Positions 489 through 42,779 of a stretch of 44,564 nt of DNA are shown here, in pieces. The translations under genes were made by a program, and so were the position numbers. The first letter of the stretch is position 1; every line of letters starts with the position of its first letter. The notes under the pieces are model-generated. The model did no database searches, was not told the origin of the DNA, and saw only the letters and a program-made list of their open reading frames with translations. This DNA is from an uncultured Bacilli bacterium (GTDB lineage: Bacteria; Bacillota_I; Bacilli_A; RF39; UBA660). The stretch covers positions 1-44,564 of the forward strand of contig CALVIR010000006.1 in assembly GCA_944331915.1 (NCBI GenBank), read 5' to 3'.

Positions 489-952
489 CTACCCTTTAAA
501 AGGGTCAAAATCTTCAAGGGTCATCTGACAGCTTAATTGATCTTCTTTTAACTGATTTGCTATATATTCCTTTATTTTTTTTGTATTTTTTCCAACTGTA
601 TCTACATAATATCCTCTACACCAGAACTCTCTATTCCTATACTGATATCTCATATTTGCCCATTTACTATATATCATCAAGCTACTCTTTCCTTTTAGAA
701 ATCCCATGAATGATGACACACTATATTTTGGTGGTATTTCCAATAACATATGTATATGATCAGGACAAACCTCTGCTTCTATTATTGTTACCCCTTTCCA
801 TTCACATAATTGTCTTAATATTTGTCCTATTTCTAATCTTTTACTAGCATAAAAAACTTTTCTTCTATATTTTGGTGCAAATACTATGTGATATTTACAA
901 TTCACGTTGTATGTGCTAAACTTTTAATGTCATTTATTTTGATTTCTTTCAT
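489..952 (-). pseudogene. tnpA: IS200-family Y1 (HUH) transposase, frameshifted near 903-905
   Basis: CKYHIVFAPKYRR, HIH (HUH) and YIANQ motifs. The start MKEIKINDIKSLAHTT (ATG 952, AGGAGG RBS) is one base out of frame (ACG TG- AAT for the expected ACG TGG AAT). Could be a real lesion or a sequencing indel. Confidence 0.85.
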
Positions 953-962
953 TATAAATGTC

Positions 963-1022
963 CTCCTTCTAATATATATGGTTGCTTCTTGGCAGTCGCA
1001 ACACATATTATATTAGAAGGAG
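963..1022 (-). promoter_or_regulatory. RBS-sequestering hairpin in the tnpA leader
   Basis: CTCCTTCTAATATA...GTTGC / GCAAC...TATATTAGAAGGAG long inverted repeat covering the Shine-Dalgarno, as known for IS200 leaders. Confidence 0.75.
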
Positions 1023-1085
1023 TTTTTATTTTCAACTCATCGCTAAAGCTTTACTGAACCCCTAGACTATCTAGGGGTTTTCCCT

Positions 1086-2487: not shown

Positions 2488-2497
2488 ACTTTACCAC

Positions 2498-3529
2498 CTA
2501 TTTCTTAAGTTTTATCGTAGTATAAACATTTTTCTTTGTTCTAGTTATAGCAGTATAATAATTTTTAACATTTAAAGTATTTCCAATTATAACTATATCA
2601 TTTTCTATTGTACTTCCTTTTGCTGATCTAATTGTATTTTTTGGTCCTAACCAATTATTCACTATGTCTGCAATTTTTCCACTTTTCTGACTATATAAAA
2701 GTGTTCTCTCTCCATCATCTAATTTATGGATATTTTCAATTTCAATTTTTTCCACCTTACTATTGTTATCAGTTCCATAAATTTGAATACCCAAATTATT
2801 CCTAATCCATTCACAATTAGCTTCTGGACATCTATAACTTTTATTTTGGGTACAATCTGCATCTAATGTTGCAAACCAATCTCCTCCACAATTAATATTT
2901 TGATTGTCATCACCTAATAAAATTAATTTTATATCTGTATTATATATAATCTTAGCAAAAACTTCTCTATATCCATTTAAATCTTGTGCTTCATCAATTA
3001 ATATATAAGAAAATCTAGAGCTTATTAAATCTAATATCTCACTTTCATAATTTTTTAATAAATATAGGGATAATTCCTCTCTAAGCTTATCTGTTAGTCT
3101 TAACTCTGTTTTTGCAAATATATATTTTATAGTTTTACTATTTGGAAAATTTCCCATCATGTGTAATTGTTCATTTGTAACAGTCAAGTCAATACCTGTT
3201 TCCTTTCCATGATTACAAATCTTGCCGTCTTCTTTTATGTGTATATTTAAAATACCAATTAAATGTTTTGGTAAATTTTTTGTATCAATAAATTTCACTT
3301 TAGAACCTGATGCAACCAATGGAATAACAGAACTAAATTTAGGAAGCAGGAAGCTTAAAAAAAACGAATCTATTGTTTTTGCCAAAAAGCCACTATTTTT
3401 TACATCTTTAACTACACTATTGGTAAAAGCCAAATATATTCCATTTTTGTTTTCTTTTAAGTATTTTTGAGAGTATGTTGTTTTGCCACCACCAGCAACA
3501 AATTTAATTACCTTTGAACTCATCTTCAA
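2498..3529 (-). CDS. gajB: Compact UvrD/SF1 helicase-like protein, Gabija B-like
   Basis: AGGGKTT Walker A, LAFTN, IDEAQD, LGDDNQNI, SYRCP, TIRSAKG, YTAITRTK motifs. Overlaps the upstream OLD-family gene. Start may be ATG 3523. Confidence 0.75.
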   Translation of the reverse strand: MKMSSKVIKFVAGGGKTTYSQKYLKENKNGIYLAFTNSVVKDVKNSGFLAKTIDSFFLSFLLPKFSSVIPLVASGSKVKFIDTKNLPKHLIGILNIHIKEDGKICNHGKETGIDLTVTNEQLHMMGNFPNSKTIKYIFAKTELRLTDKLREELSLYLLKNYESEILDLISSRFSYILIDEAQDLNGYREVFAKIIYNTDIKLILLGDDNQNINCGGDWFATLDADCTQNKSYRCPEANCEWIRNNLGIQIYGTDNNSKVEKIEIENIHKLDDGERTLLYSQKSGKIADIVNNWLGPKNTIRSAKGSTIENDIVIIGNTLNVKNYYTAITRTKKNVYTTIKLKK

Positions 3530-4958
3530 TATCCTTCATTATATGCCAATCCGAAAGATTAACATTATTTTCTATTAATTTTTCAACTATTTCTGTTTTT
3601 TTATGTTCTTTTGCTATAAAAATTGTTGAGTGCTTTTTATGTGGACATAACAAACTGGTATACTCATCTAAATATCCATTATTATATAAATCGGTTTCTA
3701 ATGTATTTTCTATTTCCAATAGTTTAATTCGTTTAGAGCCGCATAATTCTTTTAAGTGATTAAATCTTGGTGATGATTCTAAGTTATCAGATAACGCTTT
3801 ATCATTATCACTTACTACTATTATTTTTTTATCTAAAAAACTTGCTAATTCAATATATGGCTCAAACATAACACCTGAAACGTTCACTATAGTCCAATTT
3901 CTATTATTTTTGTATAAATAATTGTTTAATAATAATTCTTCTGTATATCCTTCAACCAATATAACATTATCAGAAAGTATTAGTTCACTTCTACCAGGAT
4001 GTAAAAAGATATTTAATTTTTGCTGATTTTTTGAACTTAATTCTGATAATCTTTTCCCAGAGATATCCAATAGTTCTTCCATTTTCAATTCATTAATTAC
4101 TACTGCAGAATGTGTTGTAGCAATAATCATCGTATTAGTAATTTCTCGTAATTCTCTAATAAGAGTTCTGATTAATGAAGGGTGTAAATGGTTTTCTATT
4201 TCATCAATTAGTATAATATTATATTTTTCACTCAAAGTATTAAGAATTATATTAGCAATACTTTTATATCCTGATCCAATTTTATAGTTATGAGCTTTAT
4301 CTCCCATACTATTATCAACAATATATACTCTTTCATTGGAAAACTTTGGGTCTGTTATTTCTATATCCAAATTTTGATTAAACTTACTACAAAAGGCTTG
4401 AAATTCATCAATTTTTTTACTCATTTCTTTTCTAATTGCTGCTTTAGATTCTTTTTTTAATTCTACATATTTTTCTTCTGAATCAACAAAATTTGAAATA
4501 CCTGTAGTTAAGTCATCAGTATATATATCTTCTATGCGCAATAATGGAATAGTATATAAATTAGGAATTTTAGGATCATCTCTTAAAATATCAAAATCTA
4601 TATTGCTTCCATTTAAATAATTAATTTCCTTTACATATCTATCACTTTGAGTTTTTCTAATTATAACCATAAATCCACATTTTTTTTCTAACTTTTCATC
4701 TTCAAAATTTAAACTAGGAATAGAATCTGGTTCTAATTCTATTTTAATGATAATGGGCAAATTATCATTACTGTCTTTAAAATCGCTTTTACTTATTCTG
4801 TAATAATCACTAGTAATAGTGGAAAATGCAATTTTTATTCCATCTAATAAATTTGTTTTCCCCGAATTATTTTTTCCCACTATTACAGTTAAATTTTTAT
4901 TAAATTCATATTTTCCTTCCAGATTTCTAAAATTTTTAAATTCAATACTTTTAATCAT
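3504..4958 (-). CDS. gajA: OLD-family ABC-ATPase/TOPRIM nuclease, Gabija A-like
   Basis: GKNNSGKT, IDEIENHLHP, TTHS and TOPRIM motifs LVEGYTE and SDND. Paired with the helicase. Confidence 0.8.
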   Translation of the reverse strand: MIKSIEFKNFRNLEGKYEFNKNLTVIVGKNNSGKTNLLDGIKIAFSTITSDYYRISKSDFKDSNDNLPIIIKIELEPDSIPSLNFEDEKLEKKCGFMVIIRKTQSDRYVKEINYLNGSNIDFDILRDDPKIPNLYTIPLLRIEDIYTDDLTTGISNFVDSEEKYVELKKESKAAIRKEMSKKIDEFQAFCSKFNQNLDIEITDPKFSNERVYIVDNSMGDKAHNYKIGSGYKSIANIILNTLSEKYNIILIDEIENHLHPSLIRTLIRELREITNTMIIATTHSAVVINELKMEELLDISGKRLSELSSKNQQKLNIFLHPGRSELILSDNVILVEGYTEELLLNNYLYKNNRNWTIVNVSGVMFEPYIELASFLDKKIIVVSDNDKALSDNLESSPRFNHLKELCGSKRIKLLEIENTLETDLYNNGYLDEYTSLLCPHKKHSTIFIAKEHKKTEIVEKLIENNVNLSDWHIMKDIEDEFKGN

Positions 4959-4990
4959 ACTGTACTACTCCTATCTTTTATATAAGAAAT

Positions 4991-5037
4991 AAAAAAACGC
5001 CAACACAAAAACTTATTAAATAATCCTGTACTAGCGC
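4991..5037 (-). terminator. G-U-rich hairpin plus U-tract between the RM genes and Gabija
   Basis: Minus strand GCGCUAGUACAGGA...UUUUGUGUUGGCGU followed by a U run. Confidence 0.5.
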
Positions 5038-5055
5038 TTATATATATTTTTATAA

Positions 5056-5892
5056 TCATTTTAATTTTATAAAAATTTGATTATCATAAAATCTCCATAG
5101 TGCTTTTTTGCTTGTAATAACATTTTCACTTGAAATAAGTCCATAATCTCTATACATTTTAGAGATTCCTCCTGAAAAATAATTTCGTCCTTTAATAAAG
5201 ATTGAAAAAAAGGCTTCATCTTCAAATAAGATTTTATACTTTTTTCTATCCTCAAGTAAATTTGCTATTTTTGATGGTACTGATAATATTCGAGCTCTTA
5301 CATCATTTTCCGTTATTTCTTTTTCTATAAATTCTTGATTAACAAATTGCCTATTATCTATATTTATATTTTCTGACTCTGCTGAAATTAATTCTTCTTC
5401 ATTGATATAGTCTTTTAATTCTTCTGGACTAAACTTAGGCTCAAAAGTGAAACCTATGCCATTTTCAATACAACTTCTTAGTAAAGTTTTTCCATCAACT
5501 AATGTTACCGGTTTTGACGGATCATTTGAGGCTTCGTTTATAACATCTTTTGTAAATTCAGAAGTGGTTATTAACATCCCTTTATGTCCGAATGGAATTA
5601 CTCCTTTTAACTCACGAAGTACATTAACATTAACTTTGTTTGTTTTATACCTTTTAGCCTGAATATAATATTCTATAGAGTCAGAATTACTAAAATCTCC
5701 AATTCCATTACGTAAAGCCTTTAAATCTATACCACCATCTTTACTCCTTTTTGTAATTTGAATTTCATCTAATCCCAATTTTCTTAAATATAATTTTAAA
5801 AAATCTTCAAATTCATATCCTGTAGCAAAACATTTATAAAATTCACTTAAATATTTTTCAATCTTGGCATCATCTAACTCATTTATTTTCAT
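5056..5892 (-). CDS. Mrr-like (Mrr_cat) PD-(D/E)xK endonuclease with an extra C-terminal domain
   Basis: FEDFL...LG, SKDGGID, IQAKRY, GMLITTSEFT and LVDG are hallmark Mrr catalytic motifs. Confidence 0.8.
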   Translation of the reverse strand: MKINELDDAKIEKYLSEFYKCFATGYEFEDFLKLYLRKLGLDEIQITKRSKDGGIDLKALRNGIGDFSNSDSIEYYIQAKRYKTNKVNVNVLRELKGVIPFGHKGMLITTSEFTKDVINEASNDPSKPVTLVDGKTLLRSCIENGIGFTFEPKFSPEELKDYINEEELISAESENINIDNRQFVNQEFIEKEITENDVRARILSVPSKIANLLEDRKKYKILFEDEAFFSIFIKGRNYFSGGISKMYRDYGLISSENVITSKKALWRFYDNQIFIKLK

Positions 5893-5907
5893 ATTTGATA
5901 CTCCTTA

Positions 5908-7686: not shown

Positions 7687-7697
7687 ACATTCATCTC

Positions 7698-8816
7698 CTA
7701 TATCTCATAATTAGTTATTAATAAATGTTCAACATCTTTGTCATTTCTATTCATAAAACTTACTAAATATCTTTTATCAAACTTTTTTATATAAAAACCA
7801 TTATCTTTATACAAATTATATATAAAATCTGTATTTTTTATTATTAACATAAATTTTGCCTTTGTATGTTTCAAATAATTAGCTAACCTTACTTGATCAT
7901 TTTTATCAAAGTCATTTTGTGCATATGTAGAAAATTCCGTATCATAAGGTGGATCTAAAAACATAAAATCTGTATCCGTTAATTTTATTTGATTACAAAA
8001 GCTTTCAAAATCTAGGCAATATAATTCTGTTTTCTTCATATAATTTCTTAATTCATCAGAAGTAACATATTCAATTTTTTTAGAAAAATCTTTTCTATTA
8101 TAACTTATACCCCCATATGGAACATTGAATTCTCCATTTGCATTATATCTAAACATTGACGCATAACAGTAATCTCTCACAAAATAAAATACTGCACAAT
8201 AAAATTCATCGCTTAATTTTAATTTGCTTTTATTATTATATAAATATCTAAAATACATATAATATGCACTTTTAAAAGCGCATTCTATATTATCCATAAT
8301 ATCTGAAATGTTCATCTTATTTCTTTGAATTTCAATTTTTTTCATTCTCTTAAACTTTGAAATTAAATTCTTTTTTATTTCTTTAATAAAATTATATAAA
8401 TTGATATCAAAATCATCTTTTAATAAATTATTTAACTCACTTGAGTGATTATCAATAAAACTATCAACTAATTTTTCTGCTTTTTTATCGTCTTTTTTTA
8501 TTTTATTATAGATTTTAGTTAATTCATTAGAATTATATTCAACCAATTCTTGTAATGATATCCAATTTTTGTTTATTTCATTTAAACTATCAATAAAATC
8601 TTTATTGTGTTCCTTTATTAATTTATATAATAGCATTAACTCAGTTGATTTATCGTTAATTAGTGAATTTTCACAGTTAATATTTAAATATACAGCACCA
8701 CCACCAACAAATGGTTCAATGTATCTTTTAAAGTTTGAAGGCAAATTCTTTAATATAATTGGTAACTCTTTTTCTTTACCACCAGCCCATTTAATAAATG
8801 GTTTCCTAGTTTTCAT
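7698..8816 (-). CDS. Dam/D12-class N6-adenine DNA methyltransferase
   Basis: [28 protein letters not shown] and FLDPPY motifs, plus a large helical insertion. Confidence 0.92.
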
Positions 8817-9050
8817 TTTTTACCTCCCTCTTGTAAATCTCTATACATGACTAATTATAACATAAAATTTTTTTTTATCATATTACTTAACTATACTTTT
8901 CTTTATAAAAGTAAAAACAAATTAGAAAATTCTACTAGTCCAAACATCTAGGGATTGGGATTTATCCCATAACAGGAAATTATAGCAGATTCTTTGGTGC
9001 TATACATTTCCATTGCTTGCTAATAACCTAAATTTATAAAAATGAACGTT

Positions 9051-9077
9051 AACTTTTTCCCCATTGGGGAAAAAGTT
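9051..9077. repeat. Perfect 13-bp inverted repeat
   Basis: AACTTTTTCCCCA-T-TGGGGAAAAAGTT in the divergent intergenic region of the element. Confidence 0.85.
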
Positions 9078-9284
9078 GTTAAGATTTTTAAAAATAAAAT
9101 GGGAAAAATTCGAAAATTTTTGGACTACTTTTAAGAAAATAAAATGAGATAATTTAGGGTATTGATTTGTCTACTTGCTATGTTAAAATATAGTAGAATA
9201 GCAAAAATTATAAAATTTAGTGAAACAAAGTAGATTTTGAGAAGTTCATGACTTCTCTTTTTTGCTTTATAGGAAGGAGCGTTT

Positions 9285-9554
9285 ATGGATAACTTTGTGA
9301 TGATTCCAACATGCTTAATGAAATCTAAGATACCTAGAAGTGCAATGTTACTTCTAGGTATTTTAAATTCTAATGCTATGCAATTAGGTTATGCTTATGG
9401 AACAAATAAGTATTATGCTAAACAATTAGGTTGTTCGACAAGAACTATCACTAACCTACTCAAATATTTAGCTGATAACAATTATATAACTATTATTAAT
9501 GGTAATAGCTTTAAACGAAGAATCTATATTAGAAATAAAGTTCTAATTACTTAG
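9285..9554 (+). CDS. Small winged-HTH protein resembling phage replication-initiator N-termini
   Basis: GYAYGTNKYYAKQLGCSTRTITNLLKYLADNNYI. AGGAAGGAG RBS. Confidence 0.7.
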   Translation: MDNFVMIPTCLMKSKIPRSAMLLLGILNSNAMQLGYAYGTNKYYAKQLGCSTRTITNLLKYLADNNYITIINGNSFKRRIYIRNKVLIT

Positions 9555-9589
9555 AAAATAATTTCTATATATGTAGAACTATATTTCTT
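9530..9589. repeat. Three palindromic iteron-like sites, 22-bp period (putative origin)
   Basis: TAGAA-N6-TTCT(A/T) at 9530, 9552 and 9574, followed by a nearly pure A/T tract. Confidence 0.6.
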
Positions 9590-9667
9590 ACATAATAAAT
9601 AAGTTAAATATATAAATTAAAAATATAATGATAAGATCTTGCAAGATGAGATCTTTGGGAGGTGTTT

Positions 9668-10117
9668 ATGAAAATTAATGATTATATTTTAGTGCATGGT
9701 AAAATAATTAACATTAAAAATAATGTTGATGATAAATATATTTGGTTTGACATAGTAAAAGATGAGTACTTTAAAGATAAGGATGGAAATTTAAAAAATT
9801 ATCCATCCTTTTTTAGTGCAAGAATATCAAAAACAATTGCAAATAAATATATCCTTGATATGAATATTGAAATTGTTGTAAAAGGTATTCCTAAAGGTTA
9901 TTTAGATAAAAATGGATATAGACAAAACTATATACATGCTACAGAAATTAATGGTGTAGAAACTAGCGAAGATATACTAAATCAAGTTATTAGTTATGAT
10001 ACCGATGGAATAATGTTATGGAATGGAAAAAGATGTGAGTCTATTCCTACTACTAAAGAAGAACAAGTAGAACTTCAGAAAATGATAAACGAAATATGTG
10101 GAAAGGATGATGAATAA
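9668..10117 (+). CDS. OB-fold/SSB-like protein
   Basis: VHGKI...FDI...YFKDKDG...FF...IVVKG pattern resembles SSB. GGAGGTG RBS. Confidence 0.5.
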   Translation: MKINDYILVHGKIINIKNNVDDKYIWFDIVKDEYFKDKDGNLKNYPSFFSARISKTIANKYILDMNIEIVVKGIPKGYLDKNGYRQNYIHATEINGVETSEDILNQVISYDTDGIMLWNGKRCESIPTTKEEQVELQKMINEICGKDDE

Positions 10118-10353
10118 TGAACGCTAAAGAAACATTAGAATTAATTTCTAAACAATGGTGTAATTTGGATGATTTAATGAAATTATCTAATCTTGGAATT
10201 AATAATGCTTTCAAGTTAAAGAAAGAAATAAAAACACTTTGTGAAGAAAAAGGCTACCTCCTTCCAAAAGGTTTATTACCTATGTGTGAAGTGGTAGCTT
10301 ATTTAAAAATAAATATTGATTACTTAAAAGAGATGAGTAATAACAAATCGTAA
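10117..10353 (+). CDS. Small protein, putative excisionase/DNA-binding
   Basis: 78 aa, coupled by TAATG to the previous gene and immediately upstream of the integrase. Function inferred from position. Confidence 0.45.
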   Translation: MNAKETLELISKQWCNLDDLMKLSNLGINNAFKLKKEIKTLCEEKGYLLPKGLLPMCEVVAYLKINIDYLKEMSNNKS

Positions 10354-10431
10354 ACTAGCAAGACATTTTATTTTGTTATACAATTGGCTCGCATGATTGA
10401 TTTATTTGTGTGGCCAGTAAAGGAGGATTAT

Positions 10432-11544
10432 ATGGCTGTTAAACAAGTAAGTAAAGAAGAAGCAACTAAAGATGGTCGCAGGTGGATATTTTATAATTAT
10501 TTATATTTAAGTGATGGAACTAGAAAAAAATATAAATCTAAAAAGTTTGCGACTAGAAATGAAGCTATTAAAGCCGAACAAAATTTTATGTCTAAAGTTG
10601 AGAAAAAAGAAATTAATGTTACAGACATGACTTTTAAAGATTTATATGAAGAATTTTACGCTTATAAATCAGATAAAGTCAAATCTACAACCATGAGAAC
10701 ATATCGTGAAAGAATTACTTCTTTAAAGATGCTAGAAAAAGTAAAAGTAAGAGATTTTAATATTACTCATTATTTAAAATGGCGTACTATGATTTCCAAT
10801 AAACCAGTTGCTGTTAAAACTAAAAATCATTATCATAAGTTTTTAAAAGAAATTCTAAATTATGGAACAAAGTGGCATGACTTTAATTTTACTTCTGTGT
10901 ATAACAGGATGGAAAAGTTTACTGATCCTAATGCTGTACCAAAAGAAATGGATTATTATACTTATGAAGAATTTAAAAAGTTTATTGCATGTGAAGATGA
11001 TTTAAAGTTTATTTGTGTATTTGAAATATTATATTATTGTGGTCTTCGTAGAGGAGAACTTAGAGGTCTTACTTGGGATAACATTGATTTTGAAGACAAG
11101 ACTTTATCTATCGTTAAAAATGTTGTGAATGAAAATGGTGATGGTGGTTATTGGAAGATTACTACTCCTAAAACTCGTACTTCTACTAGAACAATACCAA
11201 TGCCAGATATTTTAGTTAATCACTTAAAAGAATATAAAAAGCAAGTTTCTAAATATTATAACTTTAATCAGAAATGGTTTGTCGTTGGTGATGTTTCTCC
11301 CCTACACCCCGATGTTCTTAGAAAAAGAAAAAATAAAAATGCAATGAGTGCTGGTTTAAAACAAATTAGAATTCATGATTTTAGACATTCTTGTGCATCT
11401 TTACTCATTAATAATGGTGCTAATATTATGATTGTTGCTAAGTATTTAGGACATGCTAAAATTGATGAAACATTAAATACTTATGCTCATTTATTTAAAA
11501 ATAAAATGGATGATATTGTTAATATGATAAATCATTTAAAATAG
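10432..11544 (+). CDS. int: Tyrosine recombinase/integrase
   Basis: GLRRGE (R), TPKT (K), HDFRH, LGH, TY catalytic residues and an N-terminal arm-binding region. AGGAGG RBS before ATG 10432. Confidence 0.95.
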   Translation: MAVKQVSKEEATKDGRRWIFYNYLYLSDGTRKKYKSKKFATRNEAIKAEQNFMSKVEKKEINVTDMTFKDLYEEFYAYKSDKVKSTTMRTYRERITSLKMLEKVKVRDFNITHYLKWRTMISNKPVAVKTKNHYHKFLKEILNYGTKWHDFNFTSVYNRMEKFTDPNAVPKEMDYYTYEEFKKFIACEDDLKFICVFEILYYCGLRRGELRGLTWDNIDFEDKTLSIVKNVVNENGDGGYWKITTPKTRTSTRTIPMPDILVNHLKEYKKQVSKYYNFNQKWFVVGDVSPLHPDVLRKRKNKNAMSAGLKQIRIHDFRHSCASLLINNGANIMIVAKYLGHAKIDETLNTYAHLFKNKMDDIVNMINHLK

Positions 11545-27484: not shown

Positions 27485-30400
27485 TTATCTTGACAATACG
27501 GAACTTTTTCTTCGACTAATAATAACCAAAGTGCCTCCTACCATAATAATAAGTCCCCCAATTATATAAACAGCATTTGAATTACTACTAGTATTAGGTA
27601 CATCAATTGGTTTACTATTAAACATTGTCTCTGTTTGAATATCACCAGTCTCTAAGACTCTAAAATCTACTGTTGCTGTATTAACAACATAGCCATCAGG
27701 AGCATTTATTTCTTTAAGAGTATAATAACCAATTGGTAATCTTTCTATATAATGTGGTGTATCAGTAGAGGTCCATTCTTCCACTATCTCACCTTTATCA
27801 TTATATATTATTAACTGAGCCCCTGGTAATTCCTCACTATTAGCCATATCTTTTTTACTAATCATTACTTTAGTATAGTCATTAACAAAATTAACCACAG
27901 TAACATTATTATCATCAGTAATACTAAAGTATAAAGGATTATTATTAACAACAAGTCCCTCTTTCGCTTCTAATTGTCTTAAAACATAATCTCCATTATT
28001 TAAAGGATCACTAACATATTTTTCATTAGTTGTTGTAAACTCTGTTACCTCTTCTCCATCTCTAGTTTCAATTCTAAATTTAAAGCCTTCTTCTGCTTCT
28101 ATTTCTACTCTTTTATTATTAATAACTACTTTTAAAACATCATTTACAATATTAACAGTTTGCATTTCTCCAGTTTCTTCTAATTCAAAAGTAATTTTAG
28201 AATTAGATAAAACATATCCTGCTGGAGCTTCTATTTCTTCTAACTGATAAGTACCTGCTGCTAGTCTTTTAATTATATGAGGACTATCAGTTGTTACAAA
28301 GGTAATTGGTTCCATTGTTCCATCTACCCTAGATAATTTTAAAGTAGCTCCACTAATATACTCCCCAGTACCAGCATCTATTTTACCTAAAGAAACCTCA
28401 GTTGGTTTATTTTCAAGAGTAATTTCATAGTTATAATTACTAGCATCAACAGTAAATTCATGTAACGATGTATCTAAAATATAACCATCTATAGTCATAG
28501 TCTCTCTTAAGTAATAAGTACCTTCTTCTAATATATTTAAGGTAAGAGGTGTATCACTAGTAACATAATTACCAATTACCTCTTTCTCACTATTTAAAAG
28601 TTCATATCTAATACCTGCAAGAGGCATCTTTGTCTCTGCATCTATTTTATTTAAAGTTATATTAATCTTTTCATTAGGCATATTATAGGTAATAACAGAA
28701 TCTGTATCTTTAATTGTAATTGTCTCTATATGTGTATTTCTAATATAACCAGCAGGTGCTTTAGTCTCTTCTAATTTATAAGTACCACTAGCTAAACCTC
28801 TAATAACATGAGCTTCATTACCACTAGTAAACTCTGCGACTGGTTCTCCAGCACTATTAGTAAGTTTTAACTCTGCTCCTGCCATAAACTTACCATCACT
28901 ATCTACTTTCCCAAGTCTAAGTTCATTTTTCTTATTTTCAAACGTAACATTTATATTTGTTGTTTCATTAGTTACCACAAAGGATACTGGTTCTTCACTT
29001 TTAACATAACCACTAGGTGCTTCTGTTTCTCTAACATAATAAGTACCAGGATCTAATTTAGAGATAGTATAAGGACTCTTACTAGAGGTAAAACTTTCTA
29101 TCACCCTACCACTACTATCAACTATTTCCATTTTAGCTCCAACAACTGCCTCTTTTGTCTCACTATCAATCTTATTAATAGTTATTTGATTTTTACTATT
29201 ATAGAAAGTAATAGTCAAGTTCTCTGTCATTGTATTTGTAATCGTAAAGGTTAATTCTTCACTGCTAAGTGAATAACCACTAGGTGGAGCTATTTCAATA
29301 ACTTTATAATTTCCTACTGCTAAACCTGTAATACGATGTGCTTCCCTACCTGTAACCCATTCATCAACTGTACTATTAGTATCAGTATTAACAAGTCTAA
29401 GTGTCGCTCCTTCTACAAAGTTATTATCACTAGCATCTCTCTTTTCAATAAGAATTTCATTCTTTTTATCAGCATAATCCACAGTAACCCTTGTATGATC
29501 TTTATCTATGGTAAACGTCTTAACCTCATCACTAACTAGATAACCACTAGGTGCAGATATTTCGACTACTTTATATGTTCCTTCTGATAAATTAGGTATT
29601 GCTACATAATCAGTTCCTGTTGTAATAGTTGCCACAGTAGCATTATTATTATCAAGAATTCTAAGCACCGCTCCACTAACAACAGATCCTGTATCACTAT
29701 CTACTTTTCTAATATAAGCTTCAAACCTAGAATTAGTAAGAGTTCTAGAAATATTTAAATTACTACTATCAATCACCACTGTTGTTTCAGCATTATTAAT
29801 ATAGTAACCATTAGGAGCACTTGTTTCTCTAATCTTATATTCACCTGGTAATAAGTTAGAAGTCATATGACTAGTAGTAGTTGTCGTAAAGCTATCAACA
29901 ACTGTATTAGTCGCTACTCTTACAATCTCTATACTAGCTCCTGCTAAAGGACTATTACCATTACTATCGACTTTATTAACAGTAAGGCTTCCTGTCGGCA
30001 TAGTTACACTACTACTTATTGTTTTCTCTTTAGGAGTTGCTGCTAAAGTACCAGATATTGCTTGCTGCATATTACTAGCATCTTCTGCTGGAGGATCATA
30101 ACGATATGCTTCATATTCTGTATAATTTACAACAACACTTATATTAACAGTAATAGGACTACTTATTTTAGCAAGATCAACTCTAAGTTTAAATGGTTGT
30201 CCACTATTTATCGTATTACTACCTATCACATTATTATTACTATCAAGTATTTCCACTGCACTATTATTAACACTAACTTTGTAATTTTGAAAACTTACAT
30301 TAGAATTAACTGTAATATTATCTGTTATTAAATATTTATGATCACTACTCAATTTAAAGTCACTACTACTAATACTAAAACTAGGATTAATGGTAACCGG

Positions 30401-30967
30401 ATTATTTTTAGCATTAACCGCTCCATTTATAAGCGATTCTATATATTGATAATAATTACTTGCCCTAATAACATTTTTCTGATTAGTAGTCAAATTACTT
30501 TTACCTTCCGCTAAATCTTGATACCACCATAAAGCTATTTGCGTTAAGTAATCATCATAAGCATCGTTTCCTGTTAATGATTTATTAGGATATCCATTCT
30601 GTAACAAATAAACATATCCAGCATCTAATGGAGTAGCATTTTTAGTTATTGTTCTAGGACTATCATTACTAGGCCAACCCTTATCTTTTTCAAGACAATA
30701 AACGGTATATCTAAATCCCGTAGAATCAGTCGCATAATATGGAACCAAAGCAATAATTTCATCACCATACAAATTATCAAAAAGACTAACTCTATCTGTC
30801 AAAATATTTCCCATTCCTGTCGTTAAAGTATCAGGAAGCTCTGTAGGAGCCCCATATGTAATTAATGGCCCTTTAACTAAAACAACAAAGAGAATAAAGA
30901 ATAATGCTCCCAAAATAGCATTTTTAACAACATTTTTATCTATCACTGCTACATTACTATATCTCAT
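27485..30967 (-). CDS. Sortase-anchored thioester-domain adhesin with SpaA/CnaB-type repeats
   Basis: YCLE, TQIALWW (TQXA-type), multiple KxD...GA...GxY..ExxAPxGY...N repeats, VPNTS + TM + basic tail. Confidence 0.88.
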   Translation of the reverse strand: MRYSNVAVIDKNVVKNAILGALFFILFVVLVKGPLITYGAPTELPDTLTTGMGNILTDRVSLFDNLYGDEIIALVPYYATDSTGFRYTVYCLEKDKGWPSNDSPRTITKNATPLDAGYVYLLQNGYPNKSLTGNDAYDDYLTQIALWWYQDLAEGKSNLTTNQKNVIRASNYYQYIESLINGAVNAKNNPVTINPSFSISSSDFKLSSDHKYLITDNITVNSNVSFQNYKVSVNNSAVEILDSNNNVIGSNTINSGQPFKLRVDLAKISSPITVNISVVVNYTEYEAYRYDPPAEDASNMQQAISGTLAATPKEKTISSSVTMPTGSLTVNKVDSNGNSPLAGASIEIVRVATNTVVDSFTTTTTSHMTSNLLPGEYKIRETSAPNGYYINNAETTVVIDSSNLNISRTLTNSRFEAYIRKVDSDTGSVVSGAVLRILDNNNATVATITTGTDYVAIPNLSEGTYKVVEISAPSGYLVSDEVKTFTIDKDHTRVTVDYADKKNEILIEKRDASDNNFVEGATLRLVNTDTNSTVDEWVTGREAHRITGLAVGNYKVIEIAPPSGYSLSSEELTFTITNTMTENLTITFYNSKNQITINKIDSETKEAVVGAKMEIVDSSGRVIESFTSSKSPYTISKLDPGTYYVRETEAPSGYVKSEEPVSFVVTNETTNINVTFENKKNELRLGKVDSDGKFMAGAELKLTNSAGEPVAEFTSGNEAHVIRGLASGTYKLEETKAPAGYIRNTHIETITIKDTDSVITYNMPNEKINITLNKIDAETKMPLAGIRYELLNSEKEVIGNYVTSDTPLTLNILEEGTYYLRETMTIDGYILDTSLHEFTVDASNYNYEITLENKPTEVSLGKIDAGTGEYISGATLKLSRVDGTMEPITFVTTDSPHIIKRLAAGTYQLEEIEAPAGYVLSNSKITFELEETGEMQTVNIVNDVLKVVINNKRVEIEAEEGFKFRIETRDGEEVTEFTTTNEKYVSDPLNNGDYVLRQLEAKEGLVVNNNPLYFSITDDNNVTVVNFVNDYTKVMISKKDMANSEELPGAQLIIYNDKGEIVEEWTSTDTPHYIERLPIGYYTLKEINAPDGYVVNTATVDFRVLETGDIQTETMFNSKPIDVPNTSSNSNAVYIIGGLIIMVGGTLVIISRRKSSVLSR

Positions 30968-33431: not shown

Positions 33432-35264
33432 TTAACTTACTAACTGTATTTCAAATGGTGAATTCAAGGTCCCATCACCATTTACAATTTGCACGTTAGA
33501 TTTTAGATTTATAGATGGCCGGACGCCGTACACAGTGGACGGATTGTAGCTGGCCGCGTTGCCAGTGCTGTACACGCTCCACACGTAAGACGCACTATAT
33601 GGTGTTATGGTCCAATAATATGTATTGTTACCATATCTATCAAATTGTCCTGCCATTAATTCTCCTAAGCGTAGTAATCCTACCTTTGCTGTTGTCGTAC
33701 TTGATGTCAGAATATTATCCGTAGTATTTGTATATTTGGCTAGTTTATATGAGGCACCACTTCCTGCTGTTCCCAAATACCATGTTGTCGCATCTTCTAT
33801 CATTGCTATATCTTCATCAGTCAAATAGCCATTTCCCGTATTCAAATAGTCATTATTCAAAAATGTTCCTATTGTATTAGTACTTGAAAATGTTGCATTA
33901 CTACCAAAAGCATTTGTTACAAACGTCCCTTCACTCTTTAACGGTTCTGCACTGACTATTTTAGTACCACTACCATTTTCATGACTTACTATTCGATATA
34001 GATTATTTTCGCCACTACCAAATCTTATGTATTCTCCACTATATCTACTGGAAAGTAGTGTTCCTGATAGATTAGTATCATTATCGCCATTTAAGCGATA
34101 AGGGTTATCTATCGTTCCATCACCATCTACGATACGAACGCTAGATTTTAGATTTATAGATGGCCGGACGCCGTACGCAGAGGCCGGATTGTAGCCGCTG
34201 CCCGCGTAGCCATTGCCGCCCACGTCCCACACGTAAGACGCACTATAAGGAGTGATACTCCACCAATAAAGTCCGTTGTTTAAATAACCATTACTATAAG
34301 TAGTACCACTATAACTCATAGTATATTCATATATATTTAAAAGCCCTACCGCATCAGTTACCACTATAGTAGACTCAGGCTTACTTGTAGATGTAGTTAA
34401 TGTAGCATTCCATACGCTATCCATCTTTATAAATTTCTCTGGTTCTCTTAAATTACCCAAAAAACCATCCACACTCGTATCATTTAACCACTCTTCCATA
34501 TAACTACCTTCAAAAGCAGTACTACCACTTGAATAAGTAATTGTACTTATATTCCACTGAGTCACCAACTTAACACTATTATCAGCAGGATCTATACTTA
34601 CTGCTCTCCATAACTTTCCACTATACCAGATATAATTATTTGGATCTGTTCCTGTTATAAATGTTTGATCTGGATCTGTTGTATTTATCGCTCCATTTTC
34701 TCCTACTCCTGCAAGTAATACCTCTGCTACTGTTGGATCACTCATTTCTTCAAACAAATGCCCATTACTAGGTAGTGCTAAATCATTATAATCTAGTCCT
34801 ACTTGTACTCCTAAGGTAACTGTTGCATTACTACCAGAATTATTAGTTACCCTTATCTTATAAACATTACTAGCTCCGACACTACCATCTGCTTCCAAAT
34901 TAACCCCTGTTGCTGCAGGTGGTGTACTTAAGCCATCCCCTGTTACATATCCAGCAGTTACTCCATCAGGTAATGCTCCTACGTAATAGAAATTAAATCT
35001 TGCTATTCTACTATTAGGATTACTTAGAGTAACTGTAAACTCTTTAGTCTCTCCACTATTAACACTAAGTATATTTCCACTAGCTCCATCAATACTTAAA
35101 TCATATGACAATGTTCCTGTTACAATACTAATAGCATTACTCTTTTCTTTACTAACTGTAAACATCGCATATGAATAATATCCACCTACTATTAGTAATG
35201 TTAATATAATCACTACTAACATATAAATCTTACTAAATTTTGTTTCTAACAGTATTTTTTTCAT
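33432..35264 (-). CDS. Surface protein with SipW-type-like signal and two tandem C-type-lectin-like (DUF6273-like) domains; DGR target
   Basis: N-terminal TM ending GGYYSYAMF. Two domains, each with WR/YRIV, VGLL, W.ITP and YGVRPSINL motifs. Confidence 0.8.
   Translation of the reverse strand: MKKILLETKFSKIYMLVVIILTLLIVGGYYSYAMFTVSKEKSNAISIVTGTLSYDLSIDGASGNILSVNSGETKEFTVTLSNPNSRIARFNFYYVGALPDGVTAGYVTGDGLSTPPAATGVNLEADGSVGASNVYKIRVTNNSGSNATVTLGVQVGLDYNDLALPSNGHLFEEMSDPTVAEVLLAGVGENGAINTTDPDQTFITGTDPNNYIWYSGKLWRAVSIDPADNSVKLVTQWNISTITYSSGSTAFEGSYMEEWLNDTSVDGFLGNLREPEKFIKMDSVWNATLTTSTSKPESTIVVTDAVGLLNIYEYTMSYSGTTYSNGYLNNGLYWWSITPYSASYVWDVGGNGYAGSGYNPASAYGVRPSINLKSSVRIVDGDGTIDNPYRLNGDNDTNLSGTLLSSRYSGEYIRFGSGENNLYRIVSHENGSGTKIVSAEPLKSEGTFVTNAFGSNATFSSTNTIGTFLNNDYLNTGNGYLTDEDIAMIEDATTWYLGTAGSGASYKLAKYTNTTDNILTSSTTTAKVGLLRLGELMAGQFDRYGNNTYYWTITPYSASYVWSVYSTGNAASYNPSTVYGVRPSINLKSNVQIVNGDGTLNSPFEIQLVS
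33497..33599 (-). repeat. DGR variable region VR2
   Basis: GC-rich 103-bp near-copy of 34142-34247. Substitutions fall only at codon positions 1-2. Confidence 0.82.
34142..34247 (-). repeat. DGR variable region VR1
   Basis: GC-rich 106-bp near-copy of 33497-33599 with one extra NNC codon. Confidence 0.82.
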
Positions 35265-35368
35265 TTTTTACTCCTTTTTAAATATAGATATTCTTGACAT
35301 TATTTACATTATACCCTGTTTTTTAAGTTCTATACATCTAGTTATATAACCAGTTTACAAAACACACT

Positions 35369-35397
35369 AAAAAGAACAGAATACGCCTATCCTGTTC
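35369..35397 (-). terminator. Intrinsic terminator upstream of the DGR target gene
   Basis: GAACAGGAUA-GGCG-UAUUCUGUUC-UUUUU. Confidence 0.75.
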
Positions 35398-35421
35398 CAT
35401 TATCATATTGAAAGAAAGTAC

Positions 35422-35487
35422 TTATTTGTTTAAAACTACCCCCCCCCAGTTAACACATTGTGAACTGAATACTCTTGCCATTTTCAT
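35422..35487 (-). CDS. Putative 21-aa leader peptide containing a G9 tract
   Basis: AGGAAAGAAGGT then ATG AAA ATG GCA...AAC TGG GGG GGG GTA GTT TTA AAC AAA TAA. C9 at 35439-35447 on the plus strand. Confidence 0.45.
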   Translation of the reverse strand: MKMARVFSSQCVNWGGVVLNK

Positions 35488-35739
35488 ACCTTCTTTCCTA
35501 TAGATTGACGAATTAATTTACCCTGGAAATTTAAATTAGTCTATCTACTATTCTTTTCTTACCTTGATATCTTTTAGTTAATTATATACTATATTTAATC
35601 ATTTCGACAATACTAAATATTAGAATAGACAAACTCTTTACACTTATTATCCATAGCTAAAAAACTAACTTTACTACTGACAAAATCAGTATATACGATA
35701 TAATTATATTGATGGCGACTTTATAACTATATAGAAAGG

Positions 35740-36670
35740 ATGATTAAATTGGAAAATAATAATGTAATAGAAAATAAGTTTTTAATATACGAGGCAGAAA
35801 ATAATATTAAAGTTGAAGTTATTTTAGAAGAAGAAAATGTTTGGCTTACTCAAGAACAGATAAGTAAATTATATAATAAGGCTAAGTCTACAATTAATGA
35901 ACATATCAAGAATATATTTGAAGAAGAAGAATTAGATAAAAATTCAGTTATTCGGAATTTCCGAACAACTGCCAAAGATGGTAAATCATATAATATTAAT
36001 TATTATAATCTTGAAATGATAATTGCTATTGGGTTCCGTGTAAAATCGAAAGAAGGCACTAAATTTAGAATGTGGGCTAACGAAAAATTAAAAGAATATT
36101 TAGTAAAAGGATATAAGATCAAGCGAAAAAGTCTTTTGGAGAAAAATATTAGATATATATGCTACCTCAATTGATTATAATCCTAAGAAAGAAATTACAA
36201 TTAATTTTTTCAAAACTATCCAAAACAAAATGCACTATGCAGTTTCTAATAATACTGCTGCAGAAATAGTTTATAATAGAGTTGATAGTACTAAAGATAA
36301 TATAGGTCTTACAAATTTTAAAGGAGATATGCCTACCAGAAAAGAAACAGAAATTGCTAAAAATTATTTAACTCATGAAGAGCTACAAGTTTTAAATAGA
36401 TTAGTGTCTGCTTATCTTGAGCTTGCTGAGATTAATGCTTTAAAAAGAAAAGCAATGACAATGCAAGATTGGATTAATGAATTAGATAATTTCTTAAAAT
36501 TGACACATAATGATATATTACATACTAAAGGTAACATTTCACCTGAAGAAGCTTTAAAAAAGGCTTATGAAGAATACGATAAATATATGCAAAATCATTT
36601 AACTAAAGCTGAAAAAGATTATTTAGAGATTATGAATATCGAAATAAAGGAAATAAATAATAATTATTAA
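35740..36670 (+). pseudogene. RhuM-family protein split by an internal deletion/frameshift
   Basis: VWLTQ..I..LY, YYNLEMIIAIGFRV, FRMWA; continues out of frame as IRSSEKVFWRKILDIYATSIDY...QNKMHYA. Confidence 0.85.
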
Positions 36671-36850: not shown

Positions 36851-37843
36851 ATGAATGATTATATTCCGCCATTTAAAATTACAAATGAAATGTTAAAATT
36901 AGTTTCAAATATTATGGAAAAAATAGGAAAACTAGATAATTACTCTAATTTAGACAAAACTCCATATTTAAGAAAACAAACTAAAATAAACTCAATTCAC
37001 TCTTCTCTAGCAATTGAAAATAACAGCCTAAGTCTAGGGCAAGTAAAAGATGTAATTAATGGTAAAATAGTTATTGGTAAACAAAAAGATATACAGGAAA
37101 TTAAAAATGCTTATAAAGCTTATGAGATGTTAAAAGATATCAATCCATATTCTATTGAAGATTTAAAAAAAGTTCATGGAATAATGACATTTTTAACAGT
37201 AAAACAATCTGGAGAGTTTAGAAAAGGTCCAGAAGGTGTATTTGATGGTGATAAATGTATCTTTATCTGCCCACCAGAAGAAATGGTTAATCCATTAATG
37301 AATAATTTATTTTCCTGGCTAAGAAAAAATAAAGAAATTATTCACCCCTTGATTTTATCTAGTGTTTTTCATTATGAATTTGTTTTTATTCATCCTTTTA
37401 GCGATGGAAATGGTAGAATGGCAAGACTATGGCAAAATTCACTATTATATCAATGGAAAGATATTTTCGAATATTTGCCCATTGAATCTAAGATTCATAA
37501 ATATCAAGAAGAATATTACAATGCAATTGCTGAAAGTCACAAAAATGGAAATTCAAATTGCTTTATAAATTTTATGTTAAAAATGATAGATGAAACACTA
37601 GATGAAGCTATAGAGACATCTTTTTTACCTATTACTAATGAACTTATTAATATAAATAGATTATTAGAGGCAATGGAATTAAATACCCCCCTAACTGCAA
37701 GTGAAATAATGGCAAAATTAGGAATAAAATCTAAAGAAACGCTAAGAAGTCAATATTTAGATCCAGCTATTAAACAAGGACTTATTAATCTTACTATTCC
37801 AGATAAACCTACAAGCAAAAACCAAAAATATTATAGGAATTAA
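36851..37843 (+). CDS. Fic-domain protein
   Basis: HPFSDGNGRMAR canonical Fic motif, N-terminal SSLAIEN inhibitory-like motif, C-terminal HTH. Confidence 0.92.
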   Translation: MNDYIPPFKITNEMLKLVSNIMEKIGKLDNYSNLDKTPYLRKQTKINSIHSSLAIENNSLSLGQVKDVINGKIVIGKQKDIQEIKNAYKAYEMLKDINPYSIEDLKKVHGIMTFLTVKQSGEFRKGPEGVFDGDKCIFICPPEEMVNPLMNNLFSWLRKNKEIIHPLILSSVFHYEFVFIHPFSDGNGRMARLWQNSLLYQWKDIFEYLPIESKIHKYQEEYYNAIAESHKNGNSNCFINFMLKMIDETLDEAIETSFLPITNELININRLLEAMELNTPLTASEIMAKLGIKSKETLRSQYLDPAIKQGLINLTIPDKPTSKNQKYYRN

Positions 37844-41542: not shown

Positions 41543-41573
41543 AAAGAACTGTTAGAAAAAATCAACAGTTCTT
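41543..41573. terminator. Bidirectional terminator between convergent genes
   Basis: AAGAACTGTT...AACAGTTCTT inverted repeat. Confidence 0.65.
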
Positions 41574-42779
41574 TATTCATTTTTTAATAACCAATCTATT
41601 ATATTAATAACCTTAATACCATTATAATCATTACTAAATGGTCTATCCATCGTAAGTATTATCTTCTCATAATTATCTTCAATACTCTCTAAACTACGTA
41701 TTTCTCTTTCTTTAACCTCTTCTGTTGCTAAAGTTTGCGTTACTTGATAATACTTTATAACATTAAAGTTTTTTGCCACAAAGTCAATTTCATAATCATT
41801 AGATTTACCTATATTAACCCTATATCCTCTTCTTAATAATTCTAAATAAACTACATTTTCAAGTAAATGTCCCTCATCTATATTTCTAAACCCTAATATT
41901 ATATTTCTTATTCCTATATCTGCTATATAATACTTACCTAATGTTTTTAATAATGATTTATTTCTTATATCAGTTCTATCTGCTTTATACATTATAAATG
42001 ATTTTTCTAACATATTTAAGTAATTATCTATTGTTTGATGATTAGAATTTACCGTTATTTTATTACTATTTAAATAATTACTTATCTTTGTAGATGAAAT
42101 AGGACTACCAATATTATTTGCTAAATACTTTATAATATTTTCTAACAAAGCGGTATCTTTTATATTATTTCTATCTATGATATCTTTTTTACAATAGTAT
42201 TATAAATATCATTCAAATAAGATAATACTAATTCGTCATTATATTTAATTAAAGTTATCGCTGGTAATCCACCATATTTTAAGTATTCTCTAAACTTATT
42301 ATCTAAATTACTAGTATCATCATATTTATTAAATATTAAATATTCTTTAAATGATAAGGGATACATTTTTATTTCTATATATCTACCTGATAGCAAAGTT
42401 GATAACTCTGAAGATAAAAGATAAGCATTAGATCCAGTTATATATATATCTATATCAAAGTCAACATTAAACGAATTAATTGCTTTTTCCCAAGATTCTA
42501 CATTTTGAACCTCATCTAACAACAAATAAACTTTATCTTTTTTATTTTTTCTTTAACATAGTTATATAAATCTTTATAATTCTTTATATTATCAAATAAA
42601 GCAGACTCAAAATTCATATGTATTATATTATCTTCAGCAATATTATTATTAATAAGATAATCTTTAAACATTAGCAAAAGCGTTGATTTACCACAAGTTT
42701 TAACACCCGTTATTACTTTTATAAAAGGCTTATCTTTTGCATCTATCATTTTCTTTAAATAATTCTCTCTTACTATCAT
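41573..42779 (-). pseudogene. AAA+ ATPase (AAA_14 + DUF4143-type) in three frames
   Basis: Walker A GVKTCGKST, LLDEVQ, ITGSNA, GGLP, KYY.D.G, EIDFVA. Two single-base frameshifts in A6 runs near 42540 and 42188. Confidence 0.85.

Follow-up and report, generated by a model that had tools for sequence, protein, structure and literature searches.

A poly-G leader module upstream of a surface-protein family in uncultured Bacilli: a probable slipped-strand switch acting through a leader ORF and a transcription terminator

In Streptococcus gallolyticus, GCAGA repeats in the leader-peptide gene of the pilus operons pil1 and pil3 shift the reading frame of the leader (Danne et al., 2014; PMC3894217). 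According to that report, a short pil1 peptide stops 39 bp before a terminator, where most transcripts end, while longer peptides stop in or after the hairpin, so that the ribosome prevents hairpin formation and transcription rises. The mechanism is supported there by start-codon, stop-codon, and terminator-deletion mutants and works in Lactococcus lactis too (PMC3894217). Here, a related arrangement is described from an uncultured Bacilli bacterium (assembly GCA_944331915.1, contig CALVIR010000006.1), of which a stretch of 44,564 nt, hereafter the window, was analyzed. In this window, a run of nine G bases (G9) lies in a short open reading frame (ORF) that is led by a Shine-Dalgarno sequence (SD) and followed by an intrinsic terminator and by the gene of a 610-aa membrane-anchored protein. 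The poly-G run is probably a slipped-strand ON/OFF switch that acts through the leader ORF and the transcription terminator. Judged from sequence features, this would be a switch of the pil1 kind, and its new aspects would be the homopolymer, the single ON frame, an SD:anti-SD helix, the use in a multigene family, and a link to diversity-generating retroelements (DGRs).

The likeness to pil1 covers both order and spacing. A promoter (a candidate one here), an SD-led leader ORF with a simple repeat, an intrinsic terminator, and a gene for a surface structure follow one another in that order in both systems, and both hosts belong to the class Bacilli. The stop codon of the OFF state lies tens of nucleotides before the hairpin (39 bp in pil1, 21-46 nt here), and the long peptide ends in the hairpin. 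At the sequence level, the features found here include the SD-led ORF bearing the repeat, the terminator, a stop position that depends on the frame, and, in relatives, a candidate upstream promoter. However, the repeat is a G homopolymer rather than the GCAGA pentanucleotide, and only one of three frames is long, whereas both out-of-frame states are long in pil1. The module stands before many paralogues per genome instead of the two pilus operons of S. gallolyticus, and a conserved, predicted SD:anti-SD helix surrounds the leader ORF. Moreover, the gated genes encode DUF6273 proteins, some with DGR variable regions, and the present system is known from its sequence alone.

Other described systems share single aspects of this design. 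Classical contingency loci based on simple sequence repeats are known from Neisseria, Haemophilus, Campylobacter, and Helicobacter (PMC3894217), and poly-G ON/OFF genes have been described in Campylobacter (PMC11955535). As in those loci, a G tract of 7-11 bases is found here that is otherwise avoided in the genome, a one-base change would alter the expression of a surface protein, and interrupted copies occur. In contingency loci, however, the tract is part of the coding region of the gene itself or stands between the hexamers of a promoter, whereas here it is part of a separate leader ORF and would act through a terminator. Ribosome-mediated transcription attenuation is represented by the trp leader of Escherichia coli (PMC3894217). 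In both cases, the position of the ribosome on the leader ORF would decide whether the terminator hairpin forms, but the input here would be a heritable change of frame and not amino-acid supply, nucleotide pools, or a drug, and no separate antiterminator hairpin is evident. Ribosome-mediated attenuation also governs pyrBI and antibiotic-responsive leaders. In Clostridioides difficile, a site-specific inversion by a recombinase in the 5' leader of cwpV decides whether a terminator forms before this surface-protein gene. The cwpV leader and the present one would share a heritable DNA change in the 5' leader that decides termination, but the former is inverted by a recombinase and the latter would carry a repeat whose length is read by the ribosome. 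Neither a homopolymer leader switch of this kind nor the gating of DGR targets by a repeat was found described in the literature searched, mostly titles and opening lines of abstracts.

All features of the leader lie on the minus strand, and the tract appears as C9 on the plus strand. They occupy a divergent intergenic region of 475 nt between a split rhuM-like gene (plus strand, from 35740) and the 610-aa ORF (minus strand; Table 1). G9 is the sole G or C run of at least 7 in the whole window; a scan for G7 returned three overlapping matches, all of which are this single run, and a mean of 0.38 in shuffled sequences. A first-pass annotation of the window, made from the letters alone, had already described a G9 run in a short ORF with a ribosome-binding site, upstream of an intrinsic terminator, and this anatomy is borne out, with the target ATG 104 nt downstream of the U-run and preceded by GGAG. 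The first ATG of the leader ORF is at 35487 and not at 35486, and a second ATG in the same frame is at 35481. The candidate promoter of the leader lies ~95 nt upstream of the leader ATG and 139 nt upstream of the tract. The terminator hairpin has 11 pairs and a GGCG loop, and the U-run that follows it ends near 35368. Folded in isolation, the hairpin has an energy of -12.5 kcal/mol (z = -3.07), and it is among the two terminator-like sites that a consensus terminator scan returned in 1 kb, where shuffled sequences gave 0.1. No further copies of the leader were found within the window.

The fate of a ribosome on this leader depends on the number of G bases. At G9, the leader ORF ends with a TAA 23-24 nt upstream of the hairpin. 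At G8, as read from the sequence, the codon right after the tract is TAG. The frame that starts one base past the tract reads SFKQISTFFQYDNGTG and ends with a TAG (35389..35387) that lies where the 5' arm of the terminator reaches its top. By frame arithmetic, done on the sequence as it stands, the leader ATG is joined to this frame at G7 or G10. The three outcomes agree with those the first-pass annotation had listed for G9, for G8, and for G7 or G10.

The leader is not peculiar to the window. More than 3,000 full-length relatives of the target protein were present in the protein collection, and an alignment of 30 of them was used as a query against species-representative genomes. Relatives are encoded in 424 of the 500 matched stretches, and the best 80 of the 424 gave the 79 loci analyzed (designated by L numbers below). 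These loci amount to 1,071,060 nt and come from metagenome-assembled genomes (MAGs) of uncultured gut Bacilli and 'Tenericutes', from Candidatus Onthousia, which NCBI places in Bacilli incertae sedis, and from Clostridium sp. CAG:451. Several related loci often occur in one genome, some as tandem arrays; one MAG, for example, contributes 11 leaders. Across the 79 loci, 46 G or C runs of at least 7 were found, 45 of which are poly-G runs (G7-G11) on the coding strand shortly upstream of a family gene. After removal of one exact duplicate, 44 of the 45 are distinct, and the leader motifs are common to 43 of these 44. In the counts below, 46 sites include the window and the duplicate, 45 are the distinct sites, and 44 leaders are the 43 from the loci plus the window.

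The module has a uniform build in these relatives. In many, it starts with an extended -10 promoter (TGnTAATAT), followed by AGAAAGAAGGT and an ATG ~7 nt later. Its middle part reads TGTTTACAA-NNN-GTTACCT, then G7-11, a spacer, and ACT TTC TTT CAT TAT G, and it ends with a hairpin that has a stop codon in the 5' arm, a U-run, ~30 nt, GGAG, and the ATG of the gene. Matches to an extended -10 element (TGnTAnnnT) are present within 205 nt upstream of the leader at 31 of the 45 sites, and 22 of them lie at -72 to -87. A hairpin with a T-run follows the tract by 36-62 nt at 45 of the 46 sites, and a strong SD with an ATG is found at 38 of the 45 distinct sites, the ATG being the one after the best SD partner of a downstream pyrimidine tract. 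This pyrimidine tract is nearly invariant in the leader alignment. Of the 54 homologues of the leader that a profile search recovered, 10 have no run of at least 7. The terminator covaries: in 30 terminator segments, RNAalifold finds seven consensus pairs, three with compensatory changes, including a U-A pair replaced by C-G in nine sequences. The anatomy of the leader, its conservation, the constraint on its frame described next, the covariation of the hairpin, and the differences in tract length between loci are established. On these sequence comparisons, the leader is to be seen as a module of the whole surface-protein family.

Downstream of the tract, one reading frame is kept open. The conserved ACT TTC TTT was used as a frame anchor that is independent of stop codons, and L048, in which the anchor is missing, was dropped. 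The frame of this anchor is open back to the tract and forward into the 5' arm of the terminator in 44/44 leaders. Between the tract and ACT+21, these leaders, which are related and not independent trials but include 38 distinct spacers of at least five length classes, contain 234 stop triplets in total, with 0 in the long frame and 91 and 143 in the other two frames. The latter both meet a stop within ~20 nt of the tract. The spacer between the tract and ACT measures 21, 24, 30, 33, or 39 nt in 34/44 leaders, so insertions and deletions come mostly in threes; the ten exceptions have changes beside the tract (flanking bases turned G) or interrupted tracts. Beyond TFF, which is conserved as nucleotides, the long-frame peptide is not conserved. 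This indicates that the act of translation matters and not its product. Among the 38 SD-led leaders, 34 are in a frame classed as OFF, with a stop 21-46 nt before the stem (median 33; 23 nt in the window), and four are in the frame classed as ON, with a stop 10-16 nt inside the hairpin (L018, L024 at 4373, L033, and L034).

The length of the tract, in contrast to the frame, is variable. Two of the 44 leaders have G7, four G8, 24 G9, 11 G10, and three G11, and every spacer-length class with at least two members contains at least two tract lengths. In most leaders, the long frame requires G8 or G11, and the common lengths G9 and G10 are each one step away from it. In the window, the ON lengths would be G7 and G10 instead, because the spacer is 19 nt long. 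Neighboring copies can differ as well: the four leaders of a tandem array in L024, ~2 kb apart, have G9, G10, G10, and G9, and those of an array of four in L038 have G6, G9, G9, and G9. Some tracts have decayed (G6 in L038 and L035; G4 in L071) and others are interrupted (L041, L045, L046, and L027, the last as G7TGG); the interrupted tract of L046, read by eye, is fixed in the long frame. In L033, one copy of the leader has lost its tract, and three further copies are partial or cut at contig ends. Comparisons of close relatives gave no leader pairs at 95% flank identity or above. Among the pairs at 90-95% identity, the tract differs in 4/13, and among the top 30 leader pairs inspected by eye, six have no flank indel and three of those differ in the tract, which is suggestive only.

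The gated genes are intact (at least 550 aa) in 41/45 cases, with lengths of 581-644 aa. Their integrity despite mostly OFF leaders argues for intermittent expression. Two gated genes look broken. In L056, an early in-frame TGA is present at ~1290-1310 where the closest relative has TTA, and in L040 the ORF after the leader at 16063 is only 119 aa long.

A further pairing is predicted in the leader. The 311-nt leader of the window folds at -58.9 kcal/mol (z = -2.36), and both the minimum free energy and the centroid structures contain a helix of 12 pairs, named P1, between the SD region and the pyrimidine tract (35420..35410). P1 encloses the leader ORF, and the terminator follows it. In the 44 leaders, duplexes of the pyrimidine tract have mean energies of -10.7 kcal/mol when the partner is the leader SD, -7.7 kcal/mol when it is the target SD region, and -5.6 kcal/mol when it is the poly-G tract. 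The leader SD is its best upstream partner in nearly all 44, wherever the SD sits, which may be ~48, 61, or 93-127 nt upstream of the tract. A search of the whole window with Rfam 15 at the gathering score gave no match in the leader region, and at E values up to 10 over 35200..35800 only weak matches appeared (E = 3.9 and 5.9).

A mechanism can be proposed from these features. A promoter ~95 nt upstream would start a transcript that carries a strong SD, a short ORF running through the G tract, a terminator ~40 nt farther on, and then the gene. Of the three classes of tract length, two would bring the ribosome to a stop codon 21-46 nt before the hairpin, the hairpin would form, and transcription would terminate (OFF). 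The remaining class, which is G7 or G10 in the window and G8 or G11 in most relatives, would allow translation through the pyrimidine tract to the stop codon in the 5' arm. A ribosome seated on this arm while RNA polymerase passes the U-run would let transcription enter the gene (ON). The flip, brought about by a single G gained or lost at replication, would be heritable and reversible. For the pyrimidine tract, the leader SD would be the stronger pairing partner and the target SD the weaker one. In this model, P1 probably closes the leader after the first, polymerase-coupled ribosome and so limits translation to it; the same tract may mask the target SD in OFF read-through RNA, and P1 would be a second lock in the OFF state. 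The copy in the window would be OFF at G9, as the first-pass annotation had also concluded, and one added G away from ON. The annotation's view that slipped-strand changes let a ribosome block the terminator gains support from the conserved module, the frame constraint, the G7-G11 variation, and the pil1 precedent. Its concern that transcription and translation are weakly coupled in some Bacilli has lost weight, as the pil1 design is proven in a member of the Bacilli and, by the same report, functional in L. lactis (PMC3894217).

If this mechanism holds, leader-peptide attenuation would extend beyond one streptococcus, as a portable module that uncultured gut Bacilli employ throughout their genomes. 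Tract lengths in metagenomes could then be read as the ON or OFF state of each gene, which would give access to the expression repertoires of organisms that cannot be cultured. Even if the switch is wrongly proposed, the conserved module represents a new and easily recognized family of 5' leaders for these genomes.

Several points weigh against a slipped-strand switch in this form. The share of leaders in the ON frame is low, at 4/38 of the SD-led leaders or 6/44 by codon anchors, where one third would be expected under neutrality. Such a share needs selection for mostly-OFF families, or else another start or the opposite direction of switching; it fits a family that is mostly silent in most cells, by analogy with the Pil1-low majority of S. 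gallolyticus. The effective start may not be unique, since additional ATGs occur in other frames. Many leaders have three ATGs, at -31, -20, and -9 from the tract and one per frame (e.g., L005, L024:2323, and L026:2638), of which only the first has an SD. With a tract of G9 or G10, the long ORF shares its frame with one of the ATGs that have no SD, and these extra starts might make the output graded instead of binary. Six of the 45 sites are without a strong SD-ATG and one is without the motif, and L048 is the sole one of the 46 sites at which no terminator was found. The tract lengths are MAG consensus values, some of them from long-read assemblies, in which an error of one G is possible and would change the assigned state. 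No covariation was found in helix P1 across the 44 leaders, a result ascribed to the constraint that SD and anti-SD likeness places on both strands, and a pyrimidine tract similar to the 3' end of 16S rRNA would be a partner for any strong SD. Slippage within a population, the long frame as the ON direction, and the role of P1 are what we infer from the sequences. Lastly, promoter-like sites in a window-specific insert, considered below, could feed the gene independently of the leader.

The same anatomy also fits a physiological, ribosome-dependent attenuator, in which GGG codons would be slow or prone to frameshifting, or RNA polymerase would slip, and the length differences would be drift. 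Homopolymer runs are slippery for ribosomes and polymerases, and the fact that 34/38 leaders are OFF by one step while 41/45 genes are intact suits frameshifting or slippage during expression. However, no spacer class of two or more members is uniform in tract length, and G or C runs of at least 7 occur elsewhere only once (1/46 in 1.07 Mb), which is the signature of a contingency locus; the proven pil1 system, as reported, works at the DNA level (PMC3894217). An attenuator of this type is unlikely to account for the module, and the physiological and heritable modes are not mutually exclusive. A tract that acts without being translated appears very improbable. It could be a spacer for a promoter or regulator, and a -35-like TTTACA does lie just upstream of it, but by inspection no -10 stands at a workable distance, and promoter matches lie ~70 nt or more upstream of the tract. 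It could also be an RNA strand that pairs with the pyrimidine tract and alters folding or termination. Indeed, with the 44 leaders RNAalifold picks a 9-pair helix between poly-G and CUUUCUUUC, in which substitutions stay pyrimidine. This helix is weak, however, with a consensus energy of -3 kcal/mol and no covariation, and its duplex energy of -5.6 kcal/mol compares with -10.7 kcal/mol for the SD partner. Neither form explains the indels in multiples of three, the 0/234 in-frame stops, or the conserved SD-ATG. In known promoter-spacer switches, the repeat tract stands between -35 and -10. A switch of that design was rejected here, as none of the -35-like sites has a -10 hexamer at 16-18 nt on the far side of the tract. 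The poly-G:pyrimidine helix was dropped as the main structure, being weak and without covariation, and is retained only as a minor rival.

For the window copy in particular, the leader and terminator could form a separate small transcript or a relic, with the gene driven by a promoter in the ~75-nt insert that separates the terminator from the target SD. When the leader was compared by BLAST with the 79 loci, this insert had no homologue. It contains a TATAAT at 35313..35308, 44 nt before the ATG, and a 9/12 promoter-like match (TTAAAA-16-AATAAT), and relics of a longer leader form lie upstream of the SD. The caveat of an internal promoter, which the first-pass annotation had attached to the TATAAT, stands for this copy. 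Nevertheless, the TATAAT has a poor -35 and no TG extension, and such sites are at chance level: 11 promoter-like matches were counted in 1 kb against 8.0 (standard deviation 2.7) in shuffles, and 164 TATAAT in the window against 173 expected from shuffles. These counts speak neither for nor against a bypass promoter. The SD, ORF, G9, pyrimidine tract, and hairpin of the window are moreover all intact, and the copy is one G from the long frame. A gene driven from the insert, with tract length of no importance, appears improbable. In most relatives, the gap between the U-run and the target ATG is ~30 nt or less, which leaves no room for a bypass promoter. Poly-G artefacts do occur with some sequencing chemistries. 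Here, the run is embedded between unique stretches that are conserved on either side, and 44 distinct leaders, which stem from many independent assemblies, have it at one and the same position; an origin in sequencing or assembly is thus practically negligible.

The protein behind the proposed switch belongs to a group associated with DGRs. Residues 246-374 match Pfam DUF6273 weakly (E = 1e-7), and a PDB sequence-profile search with the protein gave 0 hits. As described in the available accounts, DUF6273 is a C-lectin-like DGR target domain with the variable region (VR) at its C-terminal end (PMC10743442, PMC11792537). In the window gene, VR-like repeats lie at the ends of the DUF6273 region and of a second, similar region, with 45 identical nucleotides around GGCGTCCGGCC. 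This sequence ends both repeats and is like the initiation of mutagenic homing (IMH) site; it also stands at the end of the verified VRs of L068. Where the two copies in the window differ, the template repeats (TRs) of relatives have AAC-type codons. The TRs of other species are not cognate to the window VRs, and mismatches between them outside the core accordingly fall on all bases. In L068, which has the same two-VR layout as the window, the mismatches between the TR and the middle VR are adenine-specific (A 16/26, C 0/22, G 1/17, T 0/12). AAC-rich non-coding TRs are found downstream of family genes in L066, L068, and L076 and upstream in L072, and ORFs with a reverse transcriptase domain (RVT_1) adjoin the TRs of L076 and L066, together with a weak bAvd match. 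The DGR cassettes or TRs of the relatives lie at 11381-13313 in L066, 8681-10650 in L076, 6831-6940 in L068, 5280-5402 in L057, and 7981-8100 in L072; with that of L057, the MAG from which L068 comes seems to have two TRs.

The first-pass annotation had called the window gene a DGR target, and this label stands in part. The VR-like repeats and the homology speak for it, whereas none of the 41 ORFs of the window, including all those of at least 250 aa, matches RVT_1, and no third copy of the repeat that could be a TR was found within the window. The family resembles the DUF6273 DGR proteins of the literature (PMC10743442, PMC11792537) in the GC-rich VR-like segments at the C-terminal ends of the domains, and relatives are placed in cassettes of target, TR, Avd-like gene, and reverse transcriptase with adenine-specific differences. 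It differs in the window's want of a reverse transcriptase and TR, and in being a chromosomal multigene family rather than a phage tail protein. Another difference is that the family members linked to cassettes have plain TGnTATACT-type promoters and no poly-G leader. Only 12/41 full-length gated genes have a 90-nt stretch of at least 50% GC at VR positions and look like DGR targets. The window gene has the strongest VR-like GC signal of the gated genes, with 66% (middle copy) and 59% in the richest 90 nt. One family gene, in L012, whose leader is cut at the contig end, is not cognate to the examined TR of its own MAG.

By homology, DGR diversification layered on the switch is plausible for the window gene. 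A more tentative picture, which we hold to be somewhat less probable than its opposite, would extend this to whole genomes. In these gut Bacilli with reduced genomes, ten or more paralogous lectin-like surface proteins would each be gated by poly-G, and a subset including the window gene would be rewritten by a DGR; silent copies could be mutagenized free of selection and then displayed singly by a one-base slip, to 'diversify, then sample'. Such a two-tier system would combine an attenuator of the pil1 type with an SD:anti-SD lock, and no account of it was found in the papers searched. If true, two systems of fast variation would be linked in one gene, with slippage for display and retroelement mutagenesis for specificity. 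This would also offer a handle on how and when DGR targets are expressed, which DGR research has so far lacked.

Table 1. Features of the leader, the gated gene, and its repeats in the window (positions counted from the first base of the window).
Feature	Position	Strand	Basis
Candidate sigma-70-type leader promoter, TTGTCG-18 nt-TATAAT	35610..35581	minus	Consensus scan, 10/12 matches
Leader Shine-Dalgarno sequence, GGAAAGAAGGT; also 5' strand of helix P1	35498..35488	minus	Read from sequence
Leader ORF in the G9 state, 21 codons, MKMARVFSSQCVNWGGVVLNK and stop	35487..35422	minus	Translation
Poly-G tract, G9, candidate slipped-strand site	35447..35439	minus	Run scan and homologous tracts
Extension frame (G7 or G10 only), SFKQISTFFQYDNGTG and stop	35437..35387	minus	Translation
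Pyrimidine tract, TACTTTCTTTC, anti-SD-like; 3' strand of P1, inside the extension frame	35420..35410	minus	
Intrinsic terminator, hairpin (35398..35373) and U-run	35398..35368	minus	Scan, fold
Window-specific insert, ~75 nt, between terminator and target SD	35358..35283	minus	BLAST
Gated gene, 610-aa membrane-anchored protein with DUF6273-like domains	35264..33432	minus	ORF list, translation, Pfam
VR-like GC-rich repeat, middle copy, IMH-like end GGCGTCCGGCC	34268..34114	minus	Repeat families, alignment
VR-like GC-rich repeat, C-terminal copy, IMH-like end GGCGTCCGGCC	33620..33469	minus	Repeats, alignment

Two further observations concern the leaders and their surroundings. A unit of ~24 nt (GGGTAAAWTAATTCGTCAAT...) is present upstream of the tract at 35501-35525 in the window and in L008, L013, L016, L021, L022, L034, L039, L041, and L069. 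It occurs as a single copy or as two tandem copies, in some loci within a longer leader ORF (MANLTYQDKIICQFLGKLIRQST...) that joins the same frame before the tract, and it may be a second, in-frame repeat of the leader. Upstream of its SD, the window has kept one such unit and lost the upstream ATG, a relic of the longer leader that is intact in some relatives. The 46th G or C run of the loci is a G7 in L023 (18043-18049, minus strand). It is placed as the SD of an unrelated gene, with a TATAAT upstream of it, and may be one more site at which length matters.

Elsewhere in the window, an ORF at 489..905 (minus strand) encodes an IS200-like Y1 transposase (Pfam Y1_Tnp, E = 6e-39), and a match to the Rfam family STnc490 lies just upstream of it at 966..1079 (minus strand; 64.5 bits, gathering score 56). 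The region 489-1079 looks like an IS200/IS605-type element with a 5' RNA in a Firmicute context. A stretch resembling a defense island follows at 1309-11544. It includes a GajA-like OLD/ATPase gene (3504..4958) beside a short UvrD/GajB-like ORF (2498..3529), an Mrr-like nuclease, an AlwI-type endonuclease with a D12 methyltransferase, a DUF3800 protein, and a tyrosine integrase (10384..11544). The rhuM-family neighbor of the leader is split into ORFs at 35740..36174 and 36230..36670 and is probably disrupted; a Fic/SoFic-like gene (36851..37843) comes after it. The gene of an AAA_14/DUF4143 ATPase (PADLOC PDC-S01) at 41573-42779, probably a pseudogene, is broken up into three ORFs in a row. 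An LPXTG-anchored protein of 1160 aa with nine SpaA-type domains, a thioester domain, and no G tract of its own is encoded at 27485-30967, past tex and two genes downstream of the gated one.

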